Source of the DNA: Rhodospirillales bacterium
GTDB lineage: Bacteria; Pseudomonadota; Alphaproteobacteria; Kiloniellales; JACOMY01
Length of the DNA stretch: 64,000 bases
Assembly (NCBI GenBank): GCA_963669375.1
Contig: OY770024.1
Coordinates: 361,760 to 425,759, forward strand
Reading direction: 5' to 3'
Under the pieces are notes generated by a model. That model did no database searches. It had not been told where the DNA came from and saw nothing but the letters and a program-made list of their open reading frames with translations. A program made the translations under genes and the position numbers. Shown piece after piece: positions 2,911-43,564 of this stretch; position 1 is the stretch's first letter, and each line of letters opens with the position of its first letter.

Positions 2911-5900
2911 CTACACCATGGTGACCTCGATGGAAACCAAACCGGTGCCGCTGCCCGGGATGGTGACGCCGGCGCCCAGCACCAGGGTGTCGCTCCCGGA
3001 GCCGCCGTCATAGAGGTAGCTGGCGAAGTCCGCCTGGTTGGCGACGACGAAGATGTCGTCGCCGCTGCCACCGAACGCGCTGTCGAAGCCGGCACCGCCG
3101 GTCAGCGTATCGGCACCTTCGTCGCCATAGAGCAGGTCGTCTCCAGCATCACCGGACACGACATCGTCCCCTGAACCACCATAGAGGGCAGCGTCATTCC
3201 CGTCTCCGCCAAAGAGGCTGTCGGCGCCGCTGCCACCGTAGAAGCGGGAGTCGGCGCCACTGCCGCCGAAGAGGCTGTCGGCGCCGCTGCCACCGCGGAA
3301 GCGGGCGTCACCCCCACTGTCGCCGAAGAGGCCGTCGCCGCCGCTGCCACCGGAGAAGAAGGAGTCACTCCCATCGTCGCCGGAGAGGCTGTCGTCACCG
3401 TCGCCACCAAAGAGGTCAAAGTCAGCACCACTGCCGCCGGATAGGTTGTCGGCGCCGCTGCCACCGTAGAGGAGGATGTCCCCTCCACTGCCGCCGGAGA
3501 GGCTGTCGGCGCCACTAGCACCATTGAGAAAGACGTCATTATCACCGCCGCCGAAGAGGCTGTCGTCGCCGATGCCACCAAAGAGCGCGTTATCGCCACC
3601 GTCACCGCCGAAAAGGCTGTCGTCGCCGATGCCACCAGAGAGCCTGTCGTCGCCACCGTCGCCGAAGAGGCCGTCGTCGCCGCCGCCACCGAAGAAGGAG
3701 CGATCGCTTCCATCACCGCCGTAGAGGCGGTCGGCCCCGCTGCCGCCAGAGAAGAAGGAGTCATCTCCGCTGCCGCCGAAGAGGCTGTCGGCGCCACTGC
3801 CACCGTAGAAGCTGGAGTCGTTCCCATCGCCGCCGGAAAGGCTGTCGGCGCCGCCGTTACCAAAGAAGCTGGTGTCACTCCCACTGCCGCCGAAGAGGCT
3901 GTCGCCGCCGCTGCCGCCTAAGAAGCTGGCGTCATTCCCATCGCCACCGGAGAGGCTATCGGCGCCATCGCCACCGAAAAAGTAGGAGTCATCTCCACTG
4001 CCGCCGGAGAGGCTGTCGTTGCCGCTGCCACCGTAGAAGATGTAGTCATTCCCACTGCCGCCGTAGAGGCGGTCGGCACCGCTGCCGCCGGAGAAGAAGG
4101 CGTCAATCCCATCGCCGCCAAAGAGGCTGTCAGCGCCGCTGCCACCGTAGAAGCGGGAGTCATCTCCACCGCCGCCGGAGAGGCTGTCGGCGCCGCTGCC
4201 ACCGAAGAAGACGAAATCACCTCCACTGCCGCCGGAGAGGCTGTCGTCGCCGCTGCCACCGTAGAAGAAGCCGTCATCACCACTGCCGCCGGAGAGGCTA
4301 TCGACGCCGCTGCCACCATTGAAAAAGACGTCATCCCCATCGCCGCCGAAGAGGCTGTCGCCGCCGCTGTCACCGTAAAAGCCCGCATCACCCCCGCTGC
4401 CACCGAAGAGGCTGTCGGCGCCGTCGCCACCGTAGAAGCTCACATCACTCCCACTGCCGCCGGAGACGCTGTCGGCGCCGCTGCCGCCGTAGAAGCGGGA
4501 GTCATCTCCATCGCCACCGGAGAGACTGTCGACGCCGTCGCCACCGAAGAAGGAGCGATCATTCCCGCTGCCGCCGGAGAGGCTGTCGACGCCGCTGTCA
4601 CCGTAGAAGAAATCGTCATCCCCATTGCCGCCAGAGAGGCTGTCGGCGCCGCTGCCTCCGCGGAAGAAGATGTCATTCCCACTGCCGCCGGAAAGCCTGT
4701 CGGCGCCGCTGTCACCCAGGAAGACGGCGTCATCCCCATCGCCGCCGAAGAGGCTGTCGGCGCCGCTGCGACCGTAGAAGCCAAAGTCATTCCCATCGCC
4801 GCCGAAGAGGCTGTCGGCGCCGGTGTCACCGGCAAAAAAGCTGTCATTCCCATCGTCGCCGAAGAGGCCGTCGTTGCCACTGCCACCGATGATGAAGCTG
4901 TCTTTTCCATCGCCGCCGGAGAGGCTGTCGGCGCCGTCGCGACCGAAGAAGCCAGCGTCATCTCCATCGCCGCCGAAGAGGCTGTCGGCGCCGTCGCCAC
5001 CGTAGAAACTCACATCACTCTCACTGCCGCCGGAGACGCTGTCGGCGCCGCTGCCGCCGAAGAAGTAGCCGTCACCTCCACTGCCACCGAAGAGGCTGTC
5101 GGCGCCGCTGCCGCCGTAGAAGCGGGAGTCATCTCCACTGCCGCCGAAGAGGTTGTCGGTGCCGCTGCCACCAATGAACGCGGCGTCTTCTCCATCACCG
5201 CCGAAGAGGCTGTCGGCGCCGGAGCCACCGTAGAAGCTGCGTTCATCTCCACTGCCGCCGAAGAGGCTGTCGTCACCGTCGTCACCGTGGAAGAGAACGT
5301 CACTTCCACTGCCGCCGGAAAGGCTGTCGGCGCCACCGCCACCGTAGAAGCGGACATCATCTCCATTCTCGCCGGAGAGGCTGTCGGCGTCGTTGCCACC
5401 GTAGAAGACCGCATCACTCCCGCTGCCGCCGGAGAGGCTGTCGGCGCCGTCCTCACCGCGGAAGCTGCCGTCATTCCCACCGCCACCGGAGAGACTGTCG
5501 GCGCCATCGCCACCGAAGAAGCCGCCGTCATTCCCCTCGTCGCCGTTGATGCTGTCGGCGCCGCTGCCACCGAAGAGGAAGAAGTCAAGCCCATCGCCGC
5601 CGTAGAGGCGGTCGGCGCCGCTGCCACCGTAGAAGCGGGAGTCGGTCCCATCGCCTCCGAAGAGGCTGTCGGCGCCATCGCCACCGAAGAAGCTGCGGTC
5701 ATCTCCACTGCCGCCGGAGAGGCTGTCGTCGCCGAAATCGCCTGACAAGCTGCGGTCTACCCCATCGGCACCGTAGAGGCTGTCATCGCCGCTGCCACCG
5801 TTGAGAAAGACGTCATCTCCATCACCGCCGGAGAGGCTGTCGCTGCCGCTGCCGCCGAAGAGTCTTGCGTCATTCCCATCGCCACCGGAGAGGCTGTCGT

Positions 5901-8437: not shown

Positions 8438-11400
8438 CTATACCATGGTGACCTCGATGGAGACGAGGCCGGTGCCGCTGCCAGGGATGGTGACGCCGGC
8501 GCCCAGCACCAGGGTGTCGCTCCCGGAACCTCCGTCATAGAGGTAGCTGGCGAAGTCCGCCTGGTTCGCCACCAGGAAGATGTCGTCGCCGCTGCCACCG
8601 AACGCGCTGTCGAAGCCGGCACCGCCGGTCAGCGTATCGGCACCTTCGTCGCCATAGAGCAGGTCGTCTCCACCATCACCGGACAGGATATCGTCCCCTG
8701 AACCGCCATAGAGGGCACTGTCTTTCCCGTCCCCGCCGGAGAGACTGTCGTCGCCGGAGCCACCGTAGAAGAAGGCGTCATCCCCACTGCCGCCGAAAAG
8801 GCTGTCAGCGCCGCTGCCACCGAAGAAGTAGCCGTCAACTCCACTGCCGCCAGAGAGACTGTCGGCGCCGCTGTCACCGGAGAAGACAGAGTCATCCCCA
8901 TCGCCGCCGGAGAGGCTGTCGGCGCCGCCGTCACCGTAGAAGCCGAAGTCACCTCCACTGCCGCCGGAGAGGCTGTCGGCGCCGCTGCCACCGGAGAAGT
9001 TAGTGTCATCCCCATCGCCGCCGAAGAGACTGTCGCCGCCGCTGCCACCGAAGAAACGGTAGTCCTCTCCAACGCCGCCGAAGAGGCTGTCGTCGCCGCT
9101 GCCACCGGAGAAGCTGATGTCATTCCCATCGCCGCCGAAGAGGCTGTCGGCGCCGCCGTCACCGTAGAAGCGGGAGTCATACCCACTGCCGCCGGAGAGG
9201 CCGTCGGCGCCACTGTCACCGTAGAAGAAGTCGTCATCCCCATCGCCGCCGGAGAGGCTGTCGGCGCCGCTGCCTCCGCGGAAGAAGATGTCATTCCCAC
9301 TGCCGCCGGAAAGGCTGTCGGCGCCACCGTCACCTAAGAAGCCGTCGTCATTCCCATCGCCGCCGAAGAGGCTGTCGGCGCCGCTGCCTCCGTAGAATAA
9401 GGAGTCATTCCCATTGCCGCCGAAGAGGCTGTCGGCGCCGCTGCTACCAATGAAGCGATAGTCAACTCCACTGCCGCCGGAGAGGCTGTCGGCGCCGTCG
9501 TGGCCGTAGAAGTAAGAGTCCTCACCACTGCCGCCGGAGAGGCTGTCGGCGCCGCTGCCACCGAAGAAGCCAGCGTCACGTCCACCGCCGCCGAAGAGGC
9601 TGTCGGCGCCGCTGCCACCGACGAACTGGACGTCATCTCCACTGCCGCCGAAGAGGCTGTCAGCGCCGCCGCCACCGTAGAAGCGGGAGTCGGCGCCACT
9701 GTCGCCGAAGAGGCTGTCCGTGCCGCTGCCACCGTAGAACAAGTCGTCGTTTCCACTGCCGCCGAAGAGGCTATCGGTGCCGCGCCACCGTAGAAGCTCA
9801 CATCACTCCCACTGCCGCCGGAGAGGCTGTCGGCACCGCTGCCGCCGAAGAAGTAGGCGTCACCTCCACTGCCGCCGGAGAGGCTGTCGGCGCCGCTGCC
9901 GCCGGAGAAGCGGGAGTCATTTCCACCGTCGCCGAAGAGGCTGTCGGCGCCGCCGTCACCATTGAACAGGTCGTCGTCTCCATCACCGCCGAAGAGGCTG
10001 TCGGCGCCACTGCCACCCTTGAACAAGCCGTCATCTTCATCACCGCCGGAGAGGATGTCGTCGCCGTCGCCACCGTAGAAGCCGATTTCGAATCCATCGC
10101 CACCGGCGAGATTGTCGGCGCCGTCGCCTCCGAAGAAGCCTATGTCATTTCCATCGCCAGCGGTGAGGCTGTCGTCACCGTCGCCACCGAAGAAGCTGAG
10201 GTCATTTCCGCCGCCGCCGGTGAGGCTGTCGTCACCGTCTTCACCGTAGAAGCGAACGTCACCACCACCGCCGCCGGAGAGGCTGTCGGCGCCGTTGCCA
10301 CCGCGGAAGCGGGAGTCAATACCGTCGCCGCCGTAGAGGCTGTCGGTGCCGCTGCCACCATATAAGAAGACGTCATCCCCATCACCGCCGGAGAGGCTGT
10401 CGGCGCCGCTGCCTCCGGACAAGCTGAAGTCACTCCCCTTGCCGCCAGAGAGACTGTCGGCGCCATCGCCACCGAACAAGAAGCCGTCATTCCCATCGTC
10501 GCCATAGAGGCTGTCGGCGCCGCTGCCACCGTAGAAGAAGACGTCATTCCCTTCGTCGCCGTAGAGGCTGTCGGTGCCGCTGCCACCGTAGAATCTGCTG
10601 TCATTCCCATCGCCGCCAAAGAGGCTGTCGGCGCCGCTGTCACCGTAGAAGCGGGTGTCATTCCCATCGCCACCGGAGAGGCTGTCGTCACCGTCGTTAC
10701 CGAAGAAGCTGGTGTCTTTCCCGTCCCCGCCGGACAAACTGTCGGCGCCGCTGCCACCGGAGAAGAAGAAGTCAAGCCCATCGCCGCCGAAGAGGCTGTC
10801 GGCGCCGGAGCCACCGTAGAAGCTGCGTTCATTTCCACTGCCGCCGAAGAGGCTGTCGTCACCGTCGTCACCGTGGAAGAGAACGTCACCTCCACTGCCG
10901 CCGTAAAGGCTGTCGGCGCTACCGCCACCGTAGAAGCGGACATCATTTCCATCGCCGCCGAAGAGGCTGTCGGCGCCGGAGCCACCGAAGAAGACGCCGT
11001 CATTCTCCTCGTCGCCGGAGAGGCTGTCGGCGCCGCTGCCACCGAAGAAGAGGATGTCACCTCCACTGCCGCCGGAGAGGCTGTCGGCGCCGTCGCCACC
11101 GTAGAAGGCCGAGTCAACTCCACTGCCGCCGAAGAGCCTGTCTTCGCCGAAATCGCCTGACAAGATGCTGTCTACCCCATCGCCGCCGAAGAGGTTGTCA
11201 TCTCCGCTGCCACCGTTGAACGAAAAGTCATCTCCATCACCGCCGGAGAGGCTGTCACTGCCGCCGCCACCGAAGAACCTGACTTCATTCCCATCGCCAC
11301 CGGAGAGGCTGTCGTCGCCGTCGCCACCGAAGAAGCTGCGGTCATTTCCACTGCCGCCGGAGAGACTGTCGTCACCGTCGCCACCGTAGAAGCTGGTGTC

Positions 11401-13527
11401 ATTCCCACTGCCGCCGGAGAGGCTGTCGGCGCCGCTGTCACCGTAGAAGCCAACGTCAACACCACTGCCGCCGGAGAGGCTGTCGGTACCGCTGCCACCG
11501 AAGAAACTGGAGTCCTTCCCGTCACCGCCGAAGAGGTGGTCGGACCCCGTCCCGCCATAGAACAAGATGTCTGCCTCGCTGCCACCGAAGAGGCTGTCGC
11601 TCCCCTCTCCGCCAAAGAAGTTCCAATCGTTGCCGCTGCCGGCAGACAGCCTGTCGTCGCCGTCGTTGCCTCTGAAGATGTTGTCGTCGCCATCACCGCC
11701 GGCGAGGCTGTCGGACCCCGTCCCGCCGAAGAAGAAGGCGTCGGCGCCGCTCTCGCCGGCGAGGCTGTCGGACCCCGAGCCACCGAAGAAATCGCGATCC
11801 TGGCCGCTGCCGGCAGCAAGGCTGTCGTTACCGTCATCGCCTCTGAAGAGGTAGTCGTCTCCCTCGCCGCCGTAGAGGCTGTCGCGCCCAGAACGACCGA
11901 AGAAGGAGCTGTCCTCCCCCCTGCCGCCATGGAGCTCATCGTCGCCGGATCCGCCGGACAACCTGTCGCTGCCGACATCGCCATAGAGCCGGTCGTCGCC
12001 GTCTTCACCAAAGAGAGCGTCGTCGCCGCTGTCGCCGAAGAGCCGGAAGTCGTCCCCGCTGCCGCCATAGAGTGTGTCGGCCCCCTCTCCGCCGAAGAAA
12101 TCATGATCCTCGCCGCTGCCGGCGGCTATGCTGTCGTCGCCGCCATCGCCTCTGAAAAAAACGTCGTCGCCTTCGCCGGCGTCGATCGAGTCGGCTCCGG
12201 ATCTGCCGAAGAAGAAGCTGTCGTCCCCACTCCCGGCCGCGAGACTGTCGGCCCCCGTTCCGCCGTCGAAATAGCCGTCGCTGCCGCTGCCACCGAAGAG
12301 GCGGTCGTCACCGTCATCGCCCCTGACGCTGGTGTCATCGCCATCGCCGCCGGAGAGGCTGTCGGCCCCTTCGCCGCCGCGGAGAAAGCTGTCCGCGCCG
12401 CTGTCGCCGTAGATCCGGTCGTTGCCCTCGTCACCCGAGAGGGAGCGGTCGGCCCCATCGCCGCCGAAGATCCGATCCAGCCCGCTGCCGCCCGAGAGGC
12501 TCGCATCGATCCCCTGGCCGCCGTAGAAGCGGTCGCTACCGCTGCCACCGAAGAACAGGCTGTCCTCACCACTGCCGCCGAAGAGCCGGTCGCTGCCGCT
12601 ACCCCCATAGAACAGGCCGTCGCTTCCGCTGCCACCCGATACCGTGTCGTTGTCGTTGCCGCCGAAGAAGTAGAAATCGTCCCCATCGCCGCCGTAGAGC
12701 TTGTCGGCCGCCGCGCGACCGGCGAAGCGCATATCGTCACCCGCGTCACCGTAGATGCGGTCGATGCCGCCGCCACCATAGAAGCTGAGATCGGCACCGC
12801 TGCCGCCGTACATGGTGTCCCGCTTGCCTTGGCCGTAGACGTAGGAGTCGTCGCCACTGCCGCCGAACATGGAATCGTTGCCCGCACCTCCGTAGAGCGC
12901 GTAGTCGTCGCCCTCGCCACCGTCCACCCGGTCCGAGCTGACGTCGCCGAAGAAGAAGGCATCGATCCCGCTGCCACCGTAGAGCCGGTCGCTGCCGCGC
13001 TCGCCGTCGAGCGTGCGGTCGTCACCATCGCCGCCGAAGACCAGGTCGTTCGAACGCTCCCCCAGCAAGGAGGTGTCCGCCCCGTCGCCGCCGTAGATCC
13101 GGTCCGCATTGGCGCCGCCGTCCAGGTGCGTATCGGCGCCACTGCCGCCCGAGAGCCTATCCAGGCCGGCGCTGCCGTAGAGCTGGCTGTCGTTGCCGCT
13201 GCCACCGGAGATGGTGTCGTCCCCCACCCCGCCGAAGAGCAGGGCGTCGGCGCCATCGCCGCCGCCGATCGAATCAGCCCGCGAGCCGCCGTCGAGGTTG
13301 CTGTCGTCGCCCGCGCCCCCGAAGAGGGAATCCCGCCCGGTGCCCCCTTCCAGCGCGACATCGCCGCCGCTGCCGCCTACCAGCGTGTCGTCGCCTCGCC
13401 CCCCATAGAGGCTGTCGGCCGCGCTCAATCCATAGAGCGTGTCGTTGTCGCCGTAGCCCAGGATGGTATCGACGGCGGAGCTGCCATAGAGCGTGTCCGG
13501 TCCGGGGGTCCCTGGAATGAATGCCAT
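8438..13527 (-). pseudogene. RTX-like Ca2+-binding all-repeat protein, paralogue 3, interrupted by a 1-nt deletion near 9781-9784 (about 1696 aa if repaired)
   Basis: ORF 9334..13527 has the same N-terminus as paralogue 2. After ..SDVSFYGG it switches to Ala/Thr/Ser-rich out-of-frame sequence. ORF 8438..9742 continues the GGxGxD repeats in another frame and ends in the same conserved C-terminus as paralogue 2. The local sequence ggtgccgc-gccaccg differs from the usual ggcgccgctgccaccg. Confidence 0.75.
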
Positions 13528-31461: not shown

Positions 31462-32429
31462 GCCGCAAACCGCAAAGCAAGGCACCCAAGACGCGCAGCA
31501 GCCGCACCGCGAAGACGACGAGCGCCCCGCGAAAGCCGGCGACGAGCGATCGTAAGGCCAAGCCGCGCAAGAAGCCGACGACGGCGCGCACCAAGCGCGC
31601 CACCAAGCCGATCCGCCAGCCCAGCTATCGCCTGCGTCGCCTGCGCCGCCGCCTGCCGTGGCGCAGTCTCGCCGTCGTCCTCTTCGCCTCCGCCCTCCTC
31701 GGCGGCGGCCACTGGCTGTGGACAAGTGGTCATGTCGAGGCGACCTACGACGAGGCTGTGGAAAAGGCTTACGCCTTCAGCATCGATGCCGGCTTCGCGG
31801 TCACCAGGATCCAGATCGAGGGCCGCGTCCAAAGCGACGAGATCGGCATCATCGAAGCCTTGGAGACCGGTCACGGGGCGCCGATTCTGCGCTTCGATCC
31901 GGTGGCGGCCCAGGCAAGGATCGAGGCGCTGCCCTGGATCGAACAGGCGATCGTGGAGCGGCGGCTGCCAGGACTTATCGTCGTACGGATTTTCGAGCAG
32001 CGCCCGGCCGCGCTCTGGCAGTCGGAAGGTAAGTGGGCGGTGATCGACGAGGCGGGCAGTGTCATCGAAGGGGCCAGCCCCGCCGCCTTCGCCGAGTTGC
32101 CGAAGGTGGTCGGCGACGGCGCCGAACGCCATGTCGGCGAGATTCTCGACTTGGCGGAACGCCAGCCGGACTTGGCCAAGCAAATATATGCCGCGATTCG
32201 GGTGGGTAACAGAAGGTGGAACCTGCGTTTGCACTCGGGAATCGACGTCCGTCTGCCAGAAAATGATCCGATCACTGCGTGGGAACGCTTGGCACGGCTC
32301 GAATCCGTAGCGGATCTTCTATCGAGAGACGTCTCGGTCATCGACCTGCGTCGCGACGATCGTCTGCTGTTGCGCTTGTCGCCCGACGCGGAGATTCGCC
32401 CGCCCGAAGAACCCGGGCAGGAGACTTGA
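31458..32429 (+). CDS. ftsQ: Cell division protein FtsQ
   Basis: A basic N-terminal tail is followed by one TM helix and a POTRA-like region. The position between ddl and ftsA fits. There is an ATGA overlap with ddl. Confidence 0.8.
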   Translation: MSRKPQSKAPKTRSSRTAKTTSAPRKPATSDRKAKPRKKPTTARTKRATKPIRQPSYRLRRLRRRLPWRSLAVVLFASALLGGGHWLWTSGHVEATYDEAVEKAYAFSIDAGFAVTRIQIEGRVQSDEIGIIEALETGHGAPILRFDPVAAQARIEALPWIEQAIVERRLPGLIVVRIFEQRPAALWQSEGKWAVIDEAGSVIEGASPAAFAELPKVVGDGAERHVGEILDLAERQPDLAKQIYAAIRVGNRRWNLRLHSGIDVRLPENDPITAWERLARLESVADLLSRDVSVIDLRRDDRLLLRLSPDAEIRPPEEPGQET

Positions 32430-32432
32430 GAC

Positions 32433-33707
32433 TTGGTGGAGCGGATGAAGAGAGCCTTGGGACGTACGCGAAGCAGTTTGGTCGCCGCCTTGGATGTCGG
32501 CTCGACCAAGACCTGCTGCTTCCTGTCCGAGGTCGGCGAGGATCTGCGCCCCCGCGTCATCGGCATCGGCCAGCAGGCCAGCCGCGGCCTGCGCCACGGC
32601 ACCGTGGTCGACATGGACGCCACGACCCAGGCGATCGGCAAGGCGGTCCATTCGGCCGAGCAGATGGCCGGCCAGCAGATCGACGAGGTCTTCGTCAACA
32701 TCTCCGGCGGCAATCCGGCCTCGCGCACCCTCGGCCTCGACGTCGCCGTCAGCGGCCAGGCGATCTCGCAGTCCGAACTGGATCGCGCCATCGACGAGTG
32801 CCACTTTCGCGACGCCGCCGAGAGCGATCACAACGGCCGCCAGCTCGTCCACTCCATCCCGGTTGGCTATACCATCGACGGCAGCCGCGGCATCCGCGAC
32901 CCGCGCGGCATGTACGGCGAGCGCCTGCGCGTCGAACTGCACAGCATCTCGGCCGCCGCCTCGGCGCTGCGCAACCTCACCACCTGCATCGAGCGCGCCC
33001 ACCTCTCGGTCGCCGGCATGGTGGTCAGCCCCTATGCCTCCGGCCTCGCCTCCTTGGTCGAGGACGAGATGGAACTGGGCACCACCGTCATCGACCTGGG
33101 CGGCGGCGCCACCTCGCTGGCCGTCTTCTTCGAAGGCAACATCGTCTATTCCGACGTCCTGCCCGTCGGCGGCGACCACGTCACCAACGACATCGCGCGC
33201 GGGCTCTCCACGCCGCGGGTGCACGCGGAGCGGCTGAAGACGCTCTACGGCCACGCCATGGCAACCCTGGCCGACGAGCAGGAGATGGTCGACGTCCCGC
33301 AAGTGGGCGAAGAGGACAGCAGCGGTCAGCAGCAGGTCGCCCGCGCCGTCCTGGTGAACATCATCCAGCCGCGCCTGGAGGAGACCCTGGAGCTGGTGCG
33401 CAACCGTCTCGACGCATCGGGTCTCGGCAAGGTCGCCGGCCGACGCGTCGTGCTGACCGGCGGGGCCGCGCAGCTGCCGGGCCTGGGCGAGCTGGCCGCC
33501 CTGGTTCTGGACAAGAGAGTGCGGATCGGCCGGCCGATCCGGGTGCGCGGACTGGCGGAGGCGACGTCCGGCCCCTGCTACGCGACCTGCGCCGGCCTTC
33601 TGACCTACGCGCTGGCGGCGGACCTCAGCCGGCAACGGAACAGCCGCGAGGAGCGCGGCGACGGCCTCATCGGCCGTCTCGGACACTGGATCAAGGAGCA
33701 CTTCTGA
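32433..33707 (+). CDS. ftsA: Cell division protein FtsA
   Basis: An actin-like ATPase with [11 protein letters not shown] and [14 protein letters not shown]. The start is ambiguous: TTG at 32433, GTG at 32436 or ATG at 32445. Confidence 0.88.
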
Positions 33708-33837
33708 GCGATGCGCTAGGAGCTGCTCACAACGGAGACCCCGGCCGTTATCGGGGACACTCGGCCGACACCCCTCCCCCCCGACGGAGGTCGGCCAAAA
33801 CGCGAAAGGGGCGCCCTCGAGCCCCAGTGGAGGCAGC

Positions 33838-35724
33838 ATGAGTTTGAATTTGACCGTTCCTCTTGACGAGGATCACCTAAAGCCACGAATCACCGTGATC
33901 GGCACCGGCGGTGCCGGCGGCAATGCCGTCAACAACATGATCGCGAGCAACCTCTCGGGCGTCGAGTTCCTGGTCTGCAACACCGACGCGCAGGCCTTGG
34001 CTCAGTCGTCCTGCCCGAACAAGCTGCAGCTGGGTCGCAACCTGACCCGCGGGCTGGGCGCCGGCGCCAGGCCGGACATCGGCCGGGCGGCCGCCGAGGA
34101 GGCCATGGACGAGATCATGGCCGCGCTCGACGGCTGCAACATGGTCTTCATCACCGCCGGCATGGGCGGCGGCACCGGCACCGGCGCGGCCCCCGTGATC
34201 GCGCGCGCTGCGCGCGAGCAGGGCATCCTGACCGTCGGCGTGGTGACCAAGCCCTTCCACTTCGAGGGCGTGCACCGCATGCGGCTGGCCGAGACCGGCA
34301 TGAACGAGCTGACCCAGACGGTCGACACGCTCATCATCATCCCCAACCAGAACCTCTTCCGCATCGCCAACGAGAAGACCACCTTCGCGGATGCCTTCAA
34401 GATGGCGGACGACGTGCTGGAGGCCGGTGTCAGAGGCGTCACCGACCTCATGGTGCTGCCGGGCCTGATTAACCTCGACTTCAACGACATCCGCACGGTC
34501 ATGACCGAGATGGGCAAGGCCATGATGGGTACGGGTGAAGCCGACGGCGAAGGTCGGGCCACGGAAGCGGCCGAGGCGGCGATCGCCAACCCCTTGCTGG
34601 ACGACGTGTCCATGCGCGGCGCGCGCGGCGTCTTGATCAACATCACCGGCGGTCTGGACCTCACCCTCTTCGAGGTCGACGAGGCGGCCAACAAGATCCG
34701 CGAGCAAGTCGATCCGGAGGCCAACATCATCTTCGGCTCCACCTTCGACGAGAAGCTGGAAGGCAAGATGCGGGTCTCCATCGTCGCCACGGGCATCGAT
34801 TCCGAGGTCGATAGGGAGGGCCGCACCGGCCCCTCGCTCAGCCTCATCTCTAACCCGACGCCGCGCAGCGTGACCGCCAGCCCGGCGGCCGGCACCGCCG
34901 CCGCCTCGCCCCTGACCGCCGGCACCCAGCCCGGCGGCAGCGAAGGCGTGGCGGTCAGCGCCCGCTCGGACGCGGGCGCCAATCTGGGCGTACAGCAGCG
35001 GGTCGCACCCAACCCGATCAGCGCCCGGCACGCGGTCGGATCCGCGGCCTTGGCGGCCCAGGTGGAGCCCGAGTTGGACGAAGACCCCATGGCCGCCTAT
35101 GTCGAGCCGGCCCCGCAGCCGGAGCGGACGATCGAGGTCGATGCCGTCGAGCACGAGGAGAGCGAGGACGCGAGGGCCGACGAGGCCGAGGCCTTCGTGG
35201 CCGAGGTCGAAGCGCGTCAAGAGGGCTTCATCGCGCCGAAGCCGCTGGTGGCCGAGCAGCCGGCGCGTGCCGGCGCGCGCAACCGCCCCGACCCCTTCCG
35301 CGAGGCGGAGATGACCAATGCCGGTGGCGCTAAGGAGCCGCAGGATCCGGACACGCCGCGCGCGCAGGCGCCCGTCGCGCCGGAGCCGCGTCGCGCGCCC
35401 GGCCTGATCGCCCGCATGACCGGTGTCGCCCGCCTGTTCAACAGCGGTAGCGGCAGCGAGACTGTTGCAGAGCCGCCACAGCGCCAAGCTACTCCTGCTC
35501 CGCGGCCGACACGCCCGCAGCCGCAGCGTCGTCCCGTGCAGCAGGCCCCCAGGCCGCAAGCGCCGGTCGAGCGCGAGGCAAAGCGGGTGGACGCACAGCG
35601 CCAACGCCCAGCCGCACCTAAGGCGCAGCCCAGGCTGGACCTGGAGAAGGGACGCAAGGAAGCCGCGGTCGAGGATGACCAAATGCTTGATATCCCGGCT
35701 TTTCTGCGTCGGCAATCCAACTAG
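33838..35724 (+). CDS. ftsZ: Cell division GTPase FtsZ with long Pro/Ala/Glu/Gln-rich C-terminal linker
   Basis: The GGGTGTG tubulin signature is present, along with [15 protein letters not shown]. The C-terminal peptide is [11 protein letters not shown]. Confidence 0.95.
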
Positions 35725-36029: not shown

Positions 36030-36968
36030 ATGAGCAAACTGCTCTCCCTACGCGAGGTGCCACAGAGGACTTTAGCTGCGCGCACCAGCGTTTCAGGCAT
36101 CGGACTGCACAGTGGCCTGCCGGTCACAGTGAGCCTCTGCCCGGCTCCCGCCAATCATGGCCTCGTGTTCCTGCGCAAGGATTTGGACGTGCGCATGGCG
36201 GCGCATTGGCGCCAGGCCGTGGAGAGCCCGCTTTGCACGACCTTGGTCGATGGCTCCGGCGAGAAGATCGCGACGATCGAGCATCTGCTCTCGGCGCTCT
36301 CCGCCCTGTCCGTCGACAACCTCCTGATCGAGTTGGACGGCCCCGAAGTGCCGGCCTTGGACGGCAGCTCGGAGCGCTACGTGGCCCTGATCGACGCGGT
36401 CGGCCTGAAGGAACAATCGGCGCCAAGGCGCGCCATCGAGATCCTTGAAGAGGTCTCGGTCAGCGAACCCGGGCGCAGCGCCACGCTGGAGCCGGCCGCG
36501 AGCTTCGAACTGGCCTTCGACATCGACTTCCCGGACCCGGCGATCGGCCGCCAGCGCTGGCAGGGCCACATCAGCGAGGACCTCTATCGCGAGGAGATCG
36601 CGCGGGCCAGGACCTTCGGGATGCTGGCCGAGGTCGAGGCCATGCGACGTCACGGCCTGGGCCGCGGCGGCTCGCTGGAGAACGCGGTGGTCGTGGATTC
36701 CGGCAAGGTCCTGAACCCCGGCGGCCTGCGCTACACCGACGAGTTCGTGCGCCACAAGGTCTTGGACGCGATCGGCGACCTGGCCTTGGCCGGCGGCCCG
36801 ATCATCGGGCGCTTCGTCGGCGAGAAGGCGGGACACGCGCTGACCCTGCGGCTTCTGAAGACCCTCTTCGCCAAGCCTGACGCCTGGCGCTGGGTCACCA
36901 TGGAAGAGCCCTTGGTGACCAGCGGCGCCACCCAGATCAGCACGCGGGCCGCGGCACAGCGCGCCTGA
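36030..36968 (+). CDS. lpxC: UDP-3-O-acyl-N-acetylglucosamine deacetylase
   Basis: The sequence reads RTLAARTSVSGIGLHSGLPVTVSLCPAPANHGLVF, ..TIEHLLSAL.., FVRHKVLDAIGDL. Confidence 0.9.
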   Translation: MSKLLSLREVPQRTLAARTSVSGIGLHSGLPVTVSLCPAPANHGLVFLRKDLDVRMAAHWRQAVESPLCTTLVDGSGEKIATIEHLLSALSALSVDNLLIELDGPEVPALDGSSERYVALIDAVGLKEQSAPRRAIEILEEVSVSEPGRSATLEPAASFELAFDIDFPDPAIGRQRWQGHISEDLYREEIARARTFGMLAEVEAMRRHGLGRGGSLENAVVVDSGKVLNPGGLRYTDEFVRHKVLDAIGDLALAGGPIIGRFVGEKAGHALTLRLLKTLFAKPDAWRWVTMEEPLVTSGATQISTRAAAQRA

Positions 36969-37049
36969 TCGGAATTGCCCTTGACACCTGGAGTACACCC
37001 TGTCGAATCCGCGAGTGCTCCAAGACGGACCCTCTGACGGTAGTGTCCT

Positions 37050-38771
37050 TTAGTCGTTTATGTCACTAAAGTGTATTCTGTATATTTCTTCAGCCATTCT
37101 CCTATATTGGCTGGAGTGATACGCTTTGAAATCAAACTCATCGATTCCTTTGAGCCTCTGAGAAAAGAACTCGAATGTCATTGGCTTACCGTTGCTGATC
37201 AATATTCGCAACGTTATCAAGAACGCATTAATATATGTAACAGTGAGCAGTCTATTAATGGGTAACTTACTCGTTGTCCACCTATCCTCACTCACATTAG
37301 TTTTCACCGCGCTCAAAAACTGGTTGATGGCACGCAAACAGAACTGAAGGTAAGTTTCCAGTACCCGATCCGACTCCCCTTTCAACAAGACCTCCTTTTC
37401 AGGGTGAGAAAACACTGAAAAAAGAGAGTCCTCACCGCTCAGCTTTATCAATGGCCCAAGCCCATAACTAACAATTGAACTTGTCTTTAGTTTGTTTTTA
37501 TCATAAAAATACCTTTGGATCTCGCCATTTAGGGGGCCGGTATTAGCCATCCGTTCAATCAGTTGACGCCCAATGGAGAGTGTACTTGTAGGCTTTAGAA
37601 GAACTTCTATTTCCTGTCTCAATGCTGAAGGTGCGTTAGTCTGATTAGCATTGATAGTCAAAAATAGACCCGCCTCAAAGCGCTCTATTTCACTATTCTC
37701 CAAATCTTGAGGATAAATTATACCAGTCACTAACAAATTCCGATGGTTTCGAAGATTGCGTATTTGCTCATCATCATTTCGCGACTCATAATAAGAGAAA
37801 AGTCTATGTTGACCATCTATAACGCCAATTGAGTTCGCTCTGAGTGGAAGTCGCACTTTCACCGGTTCAGTTTTGGTCAACGTGGTGACATCAATTGTTT
37901 GCCCACTTGACTGCTCTGGTTGAGCATCAGGTGGTAGGGTAACAACCATATTGTTTAGAAACACACGTTCGTCAGCGCGTAGCTTTTTCCGGATTGCCTC
38001 GACCTTTGCTCCACTCAACATCCTCTGATAGGCCTGCGGACCACTACGCCAACCGTCTCGCCTCAGTACATAAGCTCTCTTCAACAAAGCTGCAGCATCC
38101 GCATAAAAGCTAACTACTTTGTATCCATCCGGAAAACCTGATGATGACTCTGGCAGAACTGAGCCTTCATAGGTCTCAGCTGAGCCCTTTTTAGGAAAAA
38201 CTCCAGCTGTAGCAATCTCATCAGTTGGAACGTTCATAAATTCAAGCACCTCATCTCTACATGAAATCTTAATCAGACTGGATATTCTCTCGAAATACTT
38301 TATTACTGGATAATCAAAAAACACTATATCTGACGCCAAATTCTTAGTGGTTTCATCTGGCATATTGAGAGAGCAATAAACTATCTTCAATACGTACTTA
38401 TCTTTATGAAAAACAGACCCGAGCCTCTTACCAAATGTTGGAAATGTACTTCTTAAGCTCTCTACAAATTCTACTTTTGACGAAAGTATTTTCGAAAAAA
38501 GTATGCATTTCTTTATAAGATGACTCTTTATATCTTTTGTTTGAGATGTTGTATACTCGATTAACACCAATAGATTTTCGTACAGGAATGCATCATCCAG
38601 TTCACCTACTACGCCATCGAACACTAGTTCTTTTTCGGATATCTCGCTCACGCGATCAAAGCCGACGTTACGAAAAACTGAACGTACTACATTTTTGTGA
38701 TCTCTTTCTTTCTGTCTTTGCTTCCGCTCCTCTGAAGTGAGCTTTACTTTCCTCTTCTTCCTTTGTTTCAT
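37050..38771 (-). CDS. DGQHR-domain (DndB-like, ParB/Srx-fold) protein with extra ~200-aa N-terminal domain and polybasic N-terminal tail
   Basis: VIDGQHRLF (residues 317-325, nt 37803-37817 for DGQHR) and FLTINANQTN are present. They are preceded by a QAYQRML..VFLNNMVVTL segment typical of DGQHR/DndB domains. The N-terminus is MKQRKKRKVKLTSEERKQRQKERDHKN. Confidence 0.8.
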   Translation of the reverse strand: MKQRKKRKVKLTSEERKQRQKERDHKNVVRSVFRNVGFDRVSEISEKELVFDGVVGELDDAFLYENLLVLIEYTTSQTKDIKSHLIKKCILFSKILSSKVEFVESLRSTFPTFGKRLGSVFHKDKYVLKIVYCSLNMPDETTKNLASDIVFFDYPVIKYFERISSLIKISCRDEVLEFMNVPTDEIATAGVFPKKGSAETYEGSVLPESSSGFPDGYKVVSFYADAAALLKRAYVLRRDGWRSGPQAYQRMLSGAKVEAIRKKLRADERVFLNNMVVTLPPDAQPEQSSGQTIDVTTLTKTEPVKVRLPLRANSIGVIDGQHRLFSYYESRNDDEQIRNLRNHRNLLVTGIIYPQDLENSEIERFEAGLFLTINANQTNAPSALRQEIEVLLKPTSTLSIGRQLIERMANTGPLNGEIQRYFYDKNKLKTSSIVSYGLGPLIKLSGEDSLFSVFSHPEKEVLLKGESDRVLETYLQFCLRAINQFLSAVKTNVSEDRWTTSKLPINRLLTVTYINAFLITLRILISNGKPMTFEFFSQRLKGIDEFDFKAYHSSQYRRMAEEIYRIHFSDIND

Positions 38772-38789
38772 TTCACCACCTCAGGAAAA

Positions 38790-39746
38790 TCAGCCTGCAG
38801 CCTCTTTCCATTCTTTCGGCACTCTAGCAACGCTCTCTTTAGACCCAGGCCTACGTACTGGCTTGCCAATTGGTCGGGTGATCAAACGTCCAGCGATCTG
38901 TTCATCGAGTCTGTTCTTAGCTATCTCTATGTACTGTCGACAGCTATCGATCCCAATGCCCCACCTATCGTGCTTTGCTGCAGCAATCACACTAGTTCCG
39001 GCCCCAACAAACGGATCCATCACTACATCTCCAGGTTGAGTCAAGGCCAAAACACAACGTTCCACAAGCTCACTAGGAAACTGGCAGGGATGTATTGTTT
39101 TCTCGGGGTGGCTAGCTTTCACATTTGGGAGATTCCAAACAGGGTCAGTCTTAAACACTGTCTCTGGCTCGAACACCCAAAAGTCGGCAGGGTTCTTTCC
39201 TCTAGGATTGCCACTCGGCTTTCCAGCTCTTTCCCCTCGTGCCTGAGGGTGGCGTTTGCCAGGATAGATCTGAGGAACACGCACCGCTTCAAGATTAAAG
39301 ACATAGTTATCTGATTTGGTGAACCACAATACTGTTTCATAGCGCCCAGAGAAGCGCCGTGTCATGTGGTGCCCAAAATTAAAGTGCCAGATGATTCTGT
39401 TTCGTAACTTGTATCCTTTGCTCGCAATCATGTGATAAAAAAATGCATCCAATGGAAACACTTCCCCATCGACAACGTGATTTCCTACTTGCCAGCACAG
39501 ATGGCCATCAGCTGTGACCTTTTTGCATGTTTTCTCTAAGATTGGCTCAACCCACTCCAAGTATTCCTGTAGTGAGCGGGAGCAATCACGCTCGTACTCC
39601 TTTCCCAAGTTATAAGGCGGCGACGTGATAACAAGTCGACAAGACTCATCTTCAATCTTATCTAGTACATCCAGAGAATCACCATACACGAGATGGTGTT
39701 GCCGATTCCTTGTATTGCACCCAAGGAGCTTTGAACGCACTATCAC
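38790..39746 (-). CDS. DNA methyltransferase, beta-class (N4/N6 family); SPPY catalytic motif suggests N4-cytosine specificity
   Basis: Motif IV LVITSPPYNLGKEY is near the N-terminus and motif I VVMDPFVGAGTSVIAA is near the C-terminus. The start is GTG at 39746, or possibly 39740, after a GGGGGGAA site. The gene ends 18 nt upstream of the DGQHR gene. Confidence 0.85.
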   Translation of the reverse strand: MIVRSKLLGCNTRNRQHHLVYGDSLDVLDKIEDESCRLVITSPPYNLGKEYERDCSRSLQEYLEWVEPILEKTCKKVTADGHLCWQVGNHVVDGEVFPLDAFFYHMIASKGYKLRNRIIWHFNFGHHMTRRFSGRYETVLWFTKSDNYVFNLEAVRVPQIYPGKRHPQARGERAGKPSGNPRGKNPADFWVFEPETVFKTDPVWNLPNVKASHPEKTIHPCQFPSELVERCVLALTQPGDVVMDPFVGAGTSVIAAAKHDRWGIGIDSCRQYIEIAKNRLDEQIAGRLITRPIGKPVRRPGSKESVARVPKEWKEAAG

Positions 39747-40053
39747 TTCCCCCCAACCAGCAACGGCTGATTATTAAGTTCTTTTGTTTCTGATGATACA
39801 TACTGGTGTTCTACTACTTGAGCTAGCATCATTAACACCGACTTTTCTGGTTGCTATGTTTAGTAGACAGTGGGAAGCTTCCACACACAGCGCGCCTGCG
39901 CTCATAGGTGACGCACGCTAGTCCAATTCACGTACTAACAACTCGTGTCGCTCCTCGTAGCTACCATCAAAGCAAGTGCACCAGATGAGAACTTTCTTAT
40001 GAATTGTTCTTGATCTGATTCGCCAGCTAAAATTGCAGCCAACCCTATGCCCC

Positions 40054-41268
40054 TCAGGCCGCTGTCGCCGTGGCGCCGCGGAGCGGCTTGTCGGCGATTG
40101 GGAAGTGCACCACGGCCGCCAGGAGACCCAAGGCAATCGCGATCCACCAGACCATGTCGTAGGACTGGTTCAGGTCATAGCTGATGCCGCCCAGCCAGGC
40201 GCCGAAGAAGGCGCCGATCTGGTGGCTGAACATCACGATCGCAGCCAGTGTCGCCATGTAGCGCGTGCCGAAGATCTGACCGACCAGTCCGGTGGTAAGC
40301 GGCACGGTGGAGAGCCACAAGAGGCCGAAGCTGGCCGAGAAGAGCCAAACCGCCCACTCGGTCTTGGGTCCCAAAAGGAAGGCGCCGATCACCACCGCGC
40401 GGGCCAGGTAGATGGCCGAAAGGATGTACTTCCTGGGGAAACGGCCGCCGAGCCAGCCCGCGCCCAGGCCGCCCAGGATGTTGAAGAAGCCGATGATCCC
40501 AAGGGCCGCCGCGCCGACGTCGGCGCCCAGGTTGCAGGCCACGATGTAGCCCGGCAGGTGGGTCCCGATGAAGGCGACGTGAAAGCCACAGACGAAGAAG
40601 CCGAGGTTCAAGAGGCGGTAGCCGCTGTGCCGGCCGGCCTCCGACAGGGCGCCGCTCAGGCTCTGGCCGGCCATGGCGACACTTGCGGGCTTGCCCCGCA
40701 CGGCGAGCGCCAGCGGAATCATCAGCATGGAGAGCAAAGCCAGCACCCAGAGCGCCTCGACCCAGCCGAACTCGTCGATCAGCACCTGGCTTCCCGGTAG
40801 TAGCAGGAACATGCCGACCGACCCGCCGGTCGCGGCCAAACCAAGCCACAAGGCCTGCTTTTCGGGCGGTGCTGCCCGCGCGACGGCGGCCAGGACCAGC
40901 GGAAAGCCGGCCGCGCCGACACCGAGGCCGACCAGCAGGCCCCCGCCAAGATGCAGGGTGAAGAGCGAGTCGCCGGTGGCCATCAAGATGATGCCCAGCC
41001 CGTAGCAGATCCCGCCGAAGGCGACCACGCGGCCGGCCCCGTAGCGGTCGGCGATGATGCCGAAGAAGGGCGCGGCCGCGCCCCAGAGTACGTTCTGCAC
41101 GGCGATCGCCAAGGAGAAGTCGCCGCGGCCGATCCCCATGCCGTCACTCATCGGCGCCACGAAAAGGCCGAAGGCCTGGCGCACGCCCATGGAGAGCGCC
41201 AGGATCAGGCCGCAGGCCAGCAGCAGGAAAAAGGCCTGCTGCGCGCCCGACTGCCGCGCGCTAGACAA
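40054..41268 (-). CDS. MFS transporter
   Basis: A 404-aa protein with about 12 predicted hydrophobic helices. An MFS-like loop, IADRYGAGRV, follows TM2. Confidence 0.8.
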   Translation of the reverse strand: MSSARQSGAQQAFFLLLACGLILALSMGVRQAFGLFVAPMSDGMGIGRGDFSLAIAVQNVLWGAAAPFFGIIADRYGAGRVVAFGGICYGLGIILMATGDSLFTLHLGGGLLVGLGVGAAGFPLVLAAVARAAPPEKQALWLGLAATGGSVGMFLLLPGSQVLIDEFGWVEALWVLALLSMLMIPLALAVRGKPASVAMAGQSLSGALSEAGRHSGYRLLNLGFFVCGFHVAFIGTHLPGYIVACNLGADVGAAALGIIGFFNILGGLGAGWLGGRFPRKYILSAIYLARAVVIGAFLLGPKTEWAVWLFSASFGLLWLSTVPLTTGLVGQIFGTRYMATLAAIVMFSHQIGAFFGAWLGGISYDLNQSYDMVWWIAIALGLLAAVVHFPIADKPLRGATATAA

Positions 41269-42548: not shown

Positions 42549-42854
42549 TCAAACCTTTGCTTCCCCGCGCGACAGCAAAGACCACTGCGCCACCTCCTTG
42601 TTGCGCACCCAGGGTAGCACCTTGGCGTCGAAGTCCTTGAAATGCGTGCTCTCCAGGTGCGCCTGGAAGGCCGCGCGATCGCGGTAGATCTCATAGAGGA
42701 AGATCCTGGCCGGATCCGCCGGATCCACGGCCACGTCGAAGACGAGACAGTCGGGCTCCAGGGCAAGCGAGTTCGCGGCCTGTGCCGAGACGGCGACCTG
42801 GAAGGCCTCCACCTCGTCCGCCAAGACGTCAAACACCACGGTCACGACATGCAT
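42549..42854 (-). CDS. Antibiotic-biosynthesis-monooxygenase (ABM) domain protein, YgiN-like
   Basis: A 101-aa protein with a ferredoxin-like pattern (MHVVTVVFDV..FLYEIYRDRAAFQAHLESTHFKDF). Confidence 0.7.
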   Translation of the reverse strand: MHVVTVVFDVLADEVEAFQVAVSAQAANSLALEPDCLVFDVAVDPADPARIFLYEIYRDRAAFQAHLESTHFKDFDAKVLPWVRNKEVAQWSLLSRGEAKV

Positions 42855-42874
42855 GGGACCTCCTTCCTGACATC

Positions 42875-42937
42875 TTTGAAAGCGAGAGCAGGTTCACGCA
42901 ATCAGGTGATTAGACCCGATTGCAATCTGCTCTACGT
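42875..42937 (+). repeat. REP/MITE-like hairpin element, partial copy (unit B only)
   Basis: tttgaaagcgagagcaggttcacgcaatcaggtgatt..gcaatctgctctacg matches 58611-58668 and 51771-51830. The terminal inverted arms are agagcag..ctgctct. Confidence 0.7.
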
Positions 42938-43564
42938 TGGAAAGCGCTCTTCGAGCTCGGCCACTTGGGTAGCCGTGAGGATCCGGGGATTGCAGCCCCG
43001 CAAGAGCAGGTGGAGCTTTGCCGTCTCCTCCAGCTCCTCGGTCGCGTAGACCGCGTCGGCCAGGGACTTGCCGGCCACCACCGGGCCGTGGTTTGCCAAC
43101 AGGAGGGCATGATGCTTGCCGGCAAGCCCGGCCACTGCCTCGGCCAGGGTCTCGTCGCCCGGCGGATAGTAGGGCACCAAGGCCAGGCGACCGACGCGCA
43201 TCACCGCGTAGGCGGTGATCGGCGGCAGCACGTTCCGGGGATCGAGATCCGGCAGGCAGCTGACGGCCACCGAGTAGGTGGAGTGCAGGTGGACCACCGC
43301 GCCGCTCGCCGGTCGCTTGCCGTAGACGCTGCGGTGCAGGAAGGCCTCCTTGGTCGGCGGATCGCCGCCGATGTGCCGGCCCTCTCGGTCCAGCCGCGAG
43401 AGCCGGGCCGGGTCCAGCATGCCCATGGCGCTGCCGGTGGGCGTCATCAGCCAGCCGTCCTCCAGCCGGACCGAGATGTTGCCACTGCTGCCGAAGGTAA
43501 GCCCGCGGTCGTAGAGCGACTTGGCGAAGACGACGATGGCCTCGCGGTGGCGGGCTTCGCTCAT
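42932..43564 (-). CDS. otnC: Class II aldolase/adducin-family protein, probable 3-oxo-tetronate 4-phosphate decarboxylase
   Basis: The N-terminus is AIVVFAKSLYDRGLTFGSSGNISVRL..MTPTGS, and HLHS is present. It is adjacent to, and overlaps, a DUF1537 kinase gene. Confidence 0.6.
   Translation of the reverse strand: MSEARHREAIVVFAKSLYDRGLTFGSSGNISVRLEDGWLMTPTGSAMGMLDPARLSRLDREGRHIGGDPPTKEAFLHRSVYGKRPASGAVVHLHSTYSVAVSCLPDLDPRNVLPPITAYAVMRVGRLALVPYYPPGDETLAEAVAGLAGKHHALLLANHGPVVAGKSLADAVYATEELEETAKLHLLLRGCNPRILTATQVAELEERFPT

Follow-up and report, generated by a model that had tools for sequence, protein, structure and literature searches.

Among described enzymes, GmrSD, BrxU and SspE are close to the protein considered here in domain content; these well-studied enzymes join a DUF262 domain to a DUF1524 HNH domain and play a role in defence as Type IV or phosphorothioate-sensing enzymes (PMC4619093). 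More generally, Makarova et al. noted in 2013 that ParB-like COG1479/DUF262/DGQHR domains are found fused to nucleases, PD-(D/E)xK ones in the case of COG1479/DGQHR, and linked to restriction-modification (R-M) (PMC3632139). The present analysis concerns a stretch of 64,000 nucleotides (nt) of a Rhodospirillales bacterium (contig OY770024.1, positions 361,760 to 425,759), hereafter called the window, and more precisely an AT-rich islet of about 3.04 kb lying between lpxC and an MFS gene, which holds a DNA methyltransferase gene followed by a gene for a DGQHR protein of 573 amino acids (aa). The islet is interpreted here as a mobile Type II-like R-M system whose candidate restriction enzyme would combine a PD-(D/E)xK domain with a ParB-like, probably nucleoside triphosphate (NTP)-binding domain, an interpretation to which a probability of roughly two in three (0.68) is given.

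The features of the locus, in window coordinates, are the following, the genes being taken from the list of open reading frames (ORFs).

36030-36968, plus strand: lpxC.
36969-40012, strand not given: inserted AT-rich islet of about 3.04 kb; left edge exact, right edge approximate, between 39899 and 40085.
37050-38771, minus strand (38771->37050): ORF of the 573-aa DGQHR protein, a candidate restriction endonuclease predicted to comprise a PD-(D/E)xK-like domain, a DGQHR domain and a helical C-terminal part.
38790-39746, minus strand (39746->38790): ORF of a 318-aa beta-class DNA methyltransferase (316 aa from a GTG at 39740), assigned from PF01555 and its motifs.
39747-40053, minus strand: non-coding leader of 307 nt upstream of the methyltransferase, where the promoter is presumed to lie.
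40054-41268, minus strand: MFS gene.

The methyltransferase and the 573-aa protein are the only genes of the islet; they are encoded on the same strand with a gap of 18 nt. Over 36969-40012 the G+C content is 0.440, whereas the remainder of the window has 0.679 to the left of the islet and 0.669 to its right. An earlier note, written from the letters of the window alone, had reported the same gene coordinates, the same 18-nt spacing and about 300 nt of upstream non-coding DNA, all in exact agreement with the ORF list, and its G+C counts were reproduced on recount (20/60 at 37051-37110, 36/60 at 36961-37020 and 40/60 at 40081-40140). The motifs that it quoted, namely TSPPY and DPFVGAGTS for the first ORF and VIDGQHRLF and FLTINANQTN for the second, are likewise all present in the translations.

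That note had further proposed that the islet was acquired horizontally, and the empty-site comparison leads to the same conclusion. In a relative represented by a metagenomic contig (L081), which was reached through a member of the 90%-identity cluster of the MFS protein, the gene order is that of the window (murC-murB-ddl-ftsQ-ftsA-ftsZ-lpxC, then the MFS gene), the islet is missing and the gap between lpxC and the MFS gene is 57 nt. The BLASTN alignment of the two sequences shows 86.8% identity over 7.9 kb, ends exactly at position 36968, the lpxC stop codon, and resumes from 40085 with 82.5% identity; weak intergenic similarity can be followed from about 40013 in an alignment judged by eye, which a separate local alignment did not recover. 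In the light of the empty site and of this break in flank identity, the islet of about 3.04 kb is a horizontally acquired insertion.

The 573-aa protein is divided as follows.

38127-38771, minus strand: N-terminal domain, residues 1-215, predicted PD-(D/E)xK-fold nuclease (structural model and Foldseek).
38508-38597, minus strand: candidate catalytic residues D59, E72-x-T74, H84 and K88 (conservation).
37200-38111, minus strand: DGQHR domain, residues 221-524 (TIGR03187).
37803-37817, minus strand: DGQHR motif, residues 319-323, invariant.

More than 530 full-length homologues of this protein are available, at 45-60% identity, and an AlphaFold2 model computed with 117 of them as input reached a mean pLDDT of 89.2 and a pTM of 0.83. 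In this model, residues 1-215, a part of the protein whose nuclease-like character the earlier note had missed, are predicted to form a separate PD-(D/E)xK-like nuclease domain with the element order alpha-beta-beta-beta-beta-alpha-beta (pLDDT 87.8 when the domain is modelled by itself). Both the full-length and the N-terminal domain models were compared with the PDB by Foldseek, and the identifiable entries among the top 50 matches of the N-terminal domain are all PD-(D/E)xK nucleases. The matches comprise the nuclease domains of Cdn1 (E 1.3e-3, probability 1.00), Can2 and Card1, the R2 restriction-like endonuclease, the cap-snatching endonucleases of arenaviruses and bunyaviruses, Bax1 and XisH, as well as the restriction enzymes R.BspD6I, Nt.BspD6I and EcoT38I.

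Within this domain, D59, N66, E72, T74, H84 and K88 are invariant in the 117 aligned homologues, and D59, E72, T74, H84 and K88 are also kept in the 16 remote family members from bacteria and archaea that were inspected (36-45% identity). As modelled, D59 stands just ahead of strand 60-64, E72-x-T74 at the end of strand 67-74, and H84 and K88 in helix 78-97; D59 and E72-x-T74 would thereby occupy the canonical beta2 and beta3 positions of the PD-(D/E)xK fold. A profile of the domain gave 336 matches (clusters at 50% identity) among 1.84 billion representative proteins. The 150 matches listed are either about 550-610 aa long or shorter (mostly below 460 aa and probably fragments), and none of these 150 carries the domain outside the architecture of about 550-610 aa, to which it appears, from sequence comparison, to be specific.

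Beyond residue 215, the protein consists of the DGQHR domain with a helical C-terminal part. The assignment of a DGQHR domain by the earlier note is borne out by TIGR03187, which matches with 64.2 bits against a curated cutoff of 58.85; the DGQHR pentapeptide is invariant in the 117 homologues, and an F..L..IN..Q motif follows at residues 370-377. Since no ParB/Srx entry occurs among the 50 Foldseek matches listed for the full-length model, TIGR03187 is the sole basis of this assignment. Searches of Pfam, PHROGs and PDB sequences with the whole protein and with both halves yielded chance-level matches only (DUF4519, OTEMO), with no match to DUF262 or DUF1524 (HNH) in Pfam and none to Endonuc-BglII (PF09195) even at E <= 10, while the sole match in PADLOC-DB v2 is DpdB (E 1e-4, 19.1 bits). 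In every source consulted, members of the family are labelled "DGQHR domain-containing protein" or "hypothetical protein". According to a preprint on ParB-CTPase folds (10.1101/2025.10.10.680097), a DndB-like ParB-fold protein binds ATP and GTP; by analogy, and for this reason, it is a reasonable inference that the DGQHR domain of the 573-aa protein would bind NTP.

The first gene of the islet had been taken for a beta-class DNA methyltransferase, and this class is upheld by PF01555 (N6_N4_Mtase, E 2.8e-46) and by the PADLOC model MTase_II PDLC03299 (E 1.4e-70). Motif IV, TSPPY, lies near the N-terminus and motif I, DPFVGAGTS, near the C-terminus, which is the beta-class motif order, and the closest solved structures are M.MboIIA and M.RsrI, M.PvuII being more distant. 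The SPPY motif is typical of N4-cytosine methyltransferases, and the islet enzyme is predicted from its motif IV to be of that type. While class and motifs are thus as first described, the start at 39746 is probably to be replaced by the GTG at 39740, which is found 7 nt after a Shine-Dalgarno-like run, GGGGGGAA.

The linkage test proposed in the earlier note was run on a scan in which each GTDB species was represented by one genome; it returned at least 319 loci, the best 80 of which were taken for neighbourhood analysis together with ten viral or prophage loci (nine from IMG/VR and Akkermansia phage Chantilly), making 90 loci in total. The genome loci are from Alphaproteobacteria, Bacteroidota, Gamma- and Betaproteobacteria, Planctomycetota, the Candidate Phyla Radiation (CPR), Fusobacterium and three archaeal lineages. 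An N6_N4 methyltransferase gene is adjacent to the DGQHR gene in 87/90 loci, that is, in 77/80 genome loci and in all ten viral or prophage loci, so that the linkage is conserved. In those 77 genome loci, the methyltransferase gene immediately precedes the DGQHR gene in the same orientation and either overlaps it or is separated from it by less than 100 nt. Of the three exceptions, two are truncated at a contig end, and in L037 a same-clade methyltransferase gene is found 6 kb off. The pair is convergent in three of the ten viral or prophage loci, namely in the Chantilly record and in two nearly identical contigs of IMG/VR. Beyond the pair itself, no gene is conserved: when the flanks of 76 genome loci were clustered, the biggest neighbour family was present in five loci.

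Besides, the composition of the cassette sets it apart from its surroundings in nearly all loci, its G+C content being lower than that of the flanks (0.41 vs 0.71 in L024 and 0.40 vs 0.70 in L044). In GC-rich hosts, the flanking ORFs are at host composition and the cassette is 10-30 points lower in G+C; where the host is low in G+C, the neighbouring genes differ from locus to locus and often resemble defence genes (HATPase_c_3, Schlafen/AlbA_2, HNH, C5 methyltransferase, SNF2 with NOV_C, AAA_15). Many homologues are found on metagenomic contigs of only about 2.9-3.3 kb, which is the cassette size, and this suggests that the AT-rich cassette often assembles apart from GC-rich surroundings or differs from them in coverage.

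DGQHR proteins that are 51-62% identical to each other are paired with methyltransferases only about 30% identical (forms of about 315 aa and about 425 aa), and the tree of the DGQHR proteins is not cleanly congruent with methyltransferase type, which is read, from the sequences, as swapping of methyltransferase partners and not as co-speciation. The SPPY motif is found in 73 of 78 partner methyltransferases and DPPY in three. Taken together, this mixture and the apparent partner swapping suggest that the two proteins are coupled via DNA methylation rather than through a specific protein complex.

The comparison with operons of the BglII/BstYI family gives the 573-aa protein a place in an R-M system. 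Methyltransferases 49-53% identical to that of the window precede endonucleases that RefSeq annotates as belonging to the BglII/BstYI restriction family (L082, L083), for instance on Acinetobacter pANC7970.3 and Sphingobium p2, with the same overlapping layout of methyltransferase (M) and restriction (R) genes, and a neighbour-joining tree places these methyltransferases within the DGQHR-linked set. Given the shared methyltransferase clade and the same M-R layout, the DGQHR protein occupies the R slot. In the same line, the locus of Sabulibacter ruber (L037, 9944-17059) holds an intact DGQHR homologue with no adjacent methyltransferase, in an island with Endonuclease_NS, a NOV_C protein, an SNF2 helicase, a 426-aa protein with no assigned role and, 6 kb from the solitary DGQHR gene, a BglII-like R-M pair. 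The methyltransferase of this pair is 50% identical to that of the window, and the BglII-like ORF holds the R position behind this same-clade enzyme. A further same-clade methyltransferase, 51% identical, occurs on pNg7g2 of Neorhizobium galegae (L084, 3366-4375), where two short ORFs for hypothetical proteins of 185 and 151 aa come after it, with neither a DGQHR gene nor an annotated BglII gene; this locus may represent another replacement of the R gene.

In the proposed mechanism, the islet would be a self-contained, horizontally mobile Type II-like R-M cassette in which the upstream beta-class SPPY methyltransferase, predicted to act on N4 of cytosine, would mark host DNA and the downstream 573-aa protein would be the restriction component. 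The N-terminal PD-(D/E)xK-like domain would cut DNA, with D59 and E72 as putative metal ligands and with K88, on the following helix, standing in for the usual strand lysine, whereas the DGQHR domain with the helical C-terminus would bind DNA and probably NTP, and would gate or position the nuclease on unmethylated sites. The restriction role is drawn from the R-slot equivalence, the exchange of partners, the solitary DGQHR gene of L037 near a same-clade R-M pair and the conserved nuclease-like domain. That the DGQHR protein is the effector, as the earlier note had it, is thus strengthened by the PD-(D/E)xK-like domain with its invariant residues and by the R slot, DNA cleavage being what we infer from them. 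As a secondary and weaker prediction, the target would plausibly be AGATCT or an RGATCY-like site, because the methyltransferase clade is common to BglII/BstYI systems. The hexamers AGATCT and GGATCC are both present inside the methyltransferase gene of the window, and the counts of AGATCT, GGATCC and RGATCY sites in the window are uninformative.

Several observations weigh against this mechanism. The fold matches are weak (best E 1.3e-3, TM-score 0.21-0.37), and the lysine of the ExK strand is replaced by a threonine (T74), the invariant K88 being on the next helix; a similar lysine arrangement is known from arenavirus endonucleases. No restriction-enzyme model of PADLOC-DB v2, used as a proxy for a REBASE comparison, matches the 573-aa protein, and the neighbour-joining tree of the methyltransferases carries no bootstrap support values. 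In the locus of Sphingomonas sp. 7/4-4 (L015, CP115960), the DGQHR gene is intact and the methyltransferase is frameshifted by 1 nt at 9440-9520, where a G run, tatccgggaagcgtcat, is found in place of the expected GGGG. The frameshift may stem from a sequencing error in the homopolymer, or it may reflect a true inactivation or phase variation, in which case the nuclease would be tolerated in the absence of its methyltransferase. On a metagenome chromosome (L064, OW818634.1), an endonuclease gene of the NgoBV family (11867-12544; PF09564, E 7e-53) comes immediately after the DGQHR gene and forms a trio of DPPY-type methyltransferase, DGQHR and R(NgoBV) genes, in which the methyltransferase could serve the NgoBV enzyme instead; the trio would be either two nucleases relying on one methyltransferase or two stacked systems. 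An apparent fusion of methyltransferase and DGQHR protein at this locus was rejected as an artefact of ORF extension, the genes being separate. Finally, the experimentally studied DGQHR proteins are regulators or helpers of modification, DpdB being an ATPase that supports modification by assisting DpdA. DndB, for its part, is a repressor of the dnd operon, acting on the regulatory side and not a nuclease (PMC4507180).

These last precedents lead to the best surviving alternative, which by analogy would place the DGQHR protein on the modification or regulatory side, where it would control the expression of the methyltransferase or help it to load, the islet being an epigenetic or orphan-methylation module without restriction. 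The weak matches to DpdB and dnd-associated DGQHR models point the same way, the methyltransferase-first and tightly coupled gene order also suits a cofactor, and L015 may tolerate the loss of its methyltransferase. Nevertheless, this explanation is judged quite unlikely. A regulator leaves unexplained an invariant D...ExT...H..K set on a PD-(D/E)xK-like fold from bacteria to archaea, and the swaps between methyltransferases that are about 30% identical or of the SPPY and DPPY types argue against a cofactor that acts by specific protein-protein contact. Moreover, the sister methyltransferases are paired with ordinary endonucleases of the BglII/BstYI family and do without a helper of this kind, and the convergent arrangement in phages removes autoregulation through a shared operon promoter.

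A second alternative keeps the nuclease effector but has it triggered otherwise than by methylation state, either as an abortive-infection or NTP-sensing toxin or in the Type IV-like manner of GmrSD, BrxU and SspE, with the methyltransferase being antitoxin-like or independent. The known ParB/Srx-fold nucleases of defence are indeed modification-dependent or NTP-regulated (PMC4619093), a role in programmed cell death was proposed for COG1479 fusions (Makarova et al., PMC3632139), and some of the loci lie among defence genes (Schlafen/AlbA_2, HATPase_c_3, HNH, SNF2). However, the near-constant adjacency of a methyltransferase combined with free exchange between clades is what characterises self-protection by methylation, Type IV enzymes normally occur alone, and the 573-aa protein shows neither an HNH/DUF1524 domain nor a DUF262 match, so that this alternative is a shade less probable again. 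That the nuclease serves the mobility of the cassette and not defence, as a homing-like or insertion endonuclease, is very improbable: the cassette does occupy many unrelated chromosomal sites without integrase or transposase, a 13-nt direct repeat is found at the insertion in the window, and the R2 restriction-like endonuclease and XisH are among the fold matches, but no terminal sequences are conserved between loci, R-M cassettes generally move without dedicated recombinases, and the obligatory methyltransferase and the replacement of BglII/BstYI endonucleases would be left unexplained.

Within the Type II-like R-M interpretation, a bolder version can be put forward tentatively, and it is more doubtful than the interpretation itself. 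The DGQHR module, in a ParB-CTPase-like fashion, would be a switch or sliding clamp driven by NTP, searching the DNA and licensing the fused PD-(D/E)xK nuclease. The family would then form a new class of methylation-sensitive restriction enzymes, a mirror-image counterpart to GmrSD, BrxU and SspE, the DUF262-HNH enzymes that depend on modification, and would repeatedly have taken the place of classical BglII/BstYI endonucleases beside the same methyltransferase backbone in bacteria, archaea and phages.

As regards the borders of the insertion in the window, two copies of a perfect direct repeat were noted.

36955-36967, plus strand: left copy of the 13-nt repeat CACAGCGCGCCTG, overlapping the end of lpxC and its stop codon.
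39886-39898, plus strand: right copy of the same repeat, situated within the islet about 115 nt from its right end.

The score of this repeat was reached by one of 300 shuffles, and the repeat may be an insertion footprint (target duplication) or a microhomology used at insertion. In either case, the islet would in fact end at 39898 on the right, leaving 39899-40053 as a native spacer of unusually high A+T content. The ends of the islet have no conserved sequence in common with other loci, there is no tRNA within the window, and no integrase-sized ORF fits in the islet. The leader (39747-40053) contains no ORF with a family match and none for a controller (C) protein, bears no similarity to the leaders of other loci and shows no promoter-like site on the minus strand, site counts over 36900-40150 being at shuffle level; a terminator search gave nothing above background. 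Less than 3 kb from the islet, the window and the relative's contig differ by a second indel (window 42825-42939 vs 4129-6411 in the locus coordinates of L081), at which the relative has about 2.3 kb extra, including a GT4 glycosyltransferase and a 256-aa ORF.

Two further observations concern the homologous loci. Akkermansia phage Chantilly, a temperate phage (L094, ON453895, record 32270-35376), encodes a 616-aa DGQHR homologue, 32% identical, with a convergent 422-aa methyltransferase; the pair is located between the integrase and repressor genes and is annotated without any tie to restriction. The interval between integrase and repressor is a typical site of prophage defence cargo. In addition, a protein family of about 240-254 aa is encoded next to the cassette in five loci of Bacteroidota whose methyltransferase has the long form (about 425 aa), and no Pfam match was found in the two members scanned (L018 and L050). 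Its members are at the following locus coordinates.

L018, 3870-4595.
L028, 272-850.
L034, 7881-8609.
L050, 11737-12501.
L054, 12294-13016.

If the 573-aa protein is a restriction enzyme, it would represent a new Type II-like architecture, in which a ParB-fold nucleotide-binding domain is fused to a PD-(D/E)xK nuclease, and the first ParB/Srx-fold nuclease that spares DNA when it is methylated and does not target modified DNA. The family has a wide distribution, being present in at least 319 species-level genomes and in bacteria, archaea and prophages, and as it is invisible to Pfam and PADLOC-DB v2, current counts of defence systems miss it. The predicted link to BglII/BstYI-type methyltransferases provides a directly testable hypothesis on the recognition site, and the family may give a new reagent enzyme.

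Among known systems, the cassette resembles the Type II systems of the BglII/BstYI family. The methyltransferases share 49-53% identity and are intermingled in the tree, the M gene precedes the R gene in the same direction with overlap or nearly so, and in both cases the unit is a small mobile two-gene cassette of plasmids and chromosomes. The usual mark of a Type II R-M system, a methyltransferase gene beside a candidate endonuclease gene, is thus found here. The systems differ in the R protein, which is of the BglII fold and about 200 aa long in the former, whereas here it is an unrelated 573-aa protein with PD-(D/E)xK-like and DGQHR domains. Moreover, classical Type IIP enzymes do not use NTP, while the ParB-fold domain would, by analogy, hint at NTP involvement.

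With GmrSD, BrxU and SspE, the 573-aa protein shares a ParB/Srx-fold domain with a DGQxR motif fused in one polypeptide to a nuclease, which is here a predicted one. However, these enzymes have a DGQQR motif and a C-terminal HNH domain, whereas the 573-aa protein has DGQHR and an N-terminal PD-(D/E)xK-like domain, and they are encoded by solitary genes, in contrast to the methyltransferase adjacency in 87 of the 90 loci. A candidate nuclease family paired in this way would have to spare methylated DNA and not attack it, unlike GmrSD, BrxU and SspE. DndB and DpdB have in common with the 573-aa protein the DGQHR domain and an association with a DNA-modifying enzyme, but their specific models score far below cutoff on it (27.9 bits vs 450 for TIGR04172 of DndB and 19.5 bits vs 300 for NF041060 of DpdB). 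No dndACDE or dpdA genes are conserved nearby in the 76 genome loci clustered, and the islet has its two genes only, in agreement with the earlier statement that no dndACDE, dpd or brx gene is present.

The available text of the ParB-CTPase-fold survey (preprint 10.1101/2025.10.10.680097) offers a further parallel, since the P-motif arginine is kept in DGQHR and ParB-fold domains are associated there with N6_N4 methyltransferases and nucleases. That text describes direct fusions of ParB with methyltransferase and of ParB with HNH, and makes no mention of a PD-(D/E)xK-DGQHR protein beside a separate methyltransferase. In the same line, the pair is missing from PADLOC-DB v2, and a literature search on DGQHR and DndB-like families found no paper naming it, consistent with the earlier note, which did not recognise the pairing as a named system. 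Judged from its sequences, the islet would accordingly belong to a known kind, R-M, and what appears to be new is the family with a PD-(D/E)xK-like and DGQHR architecture beside a methyltransferase.

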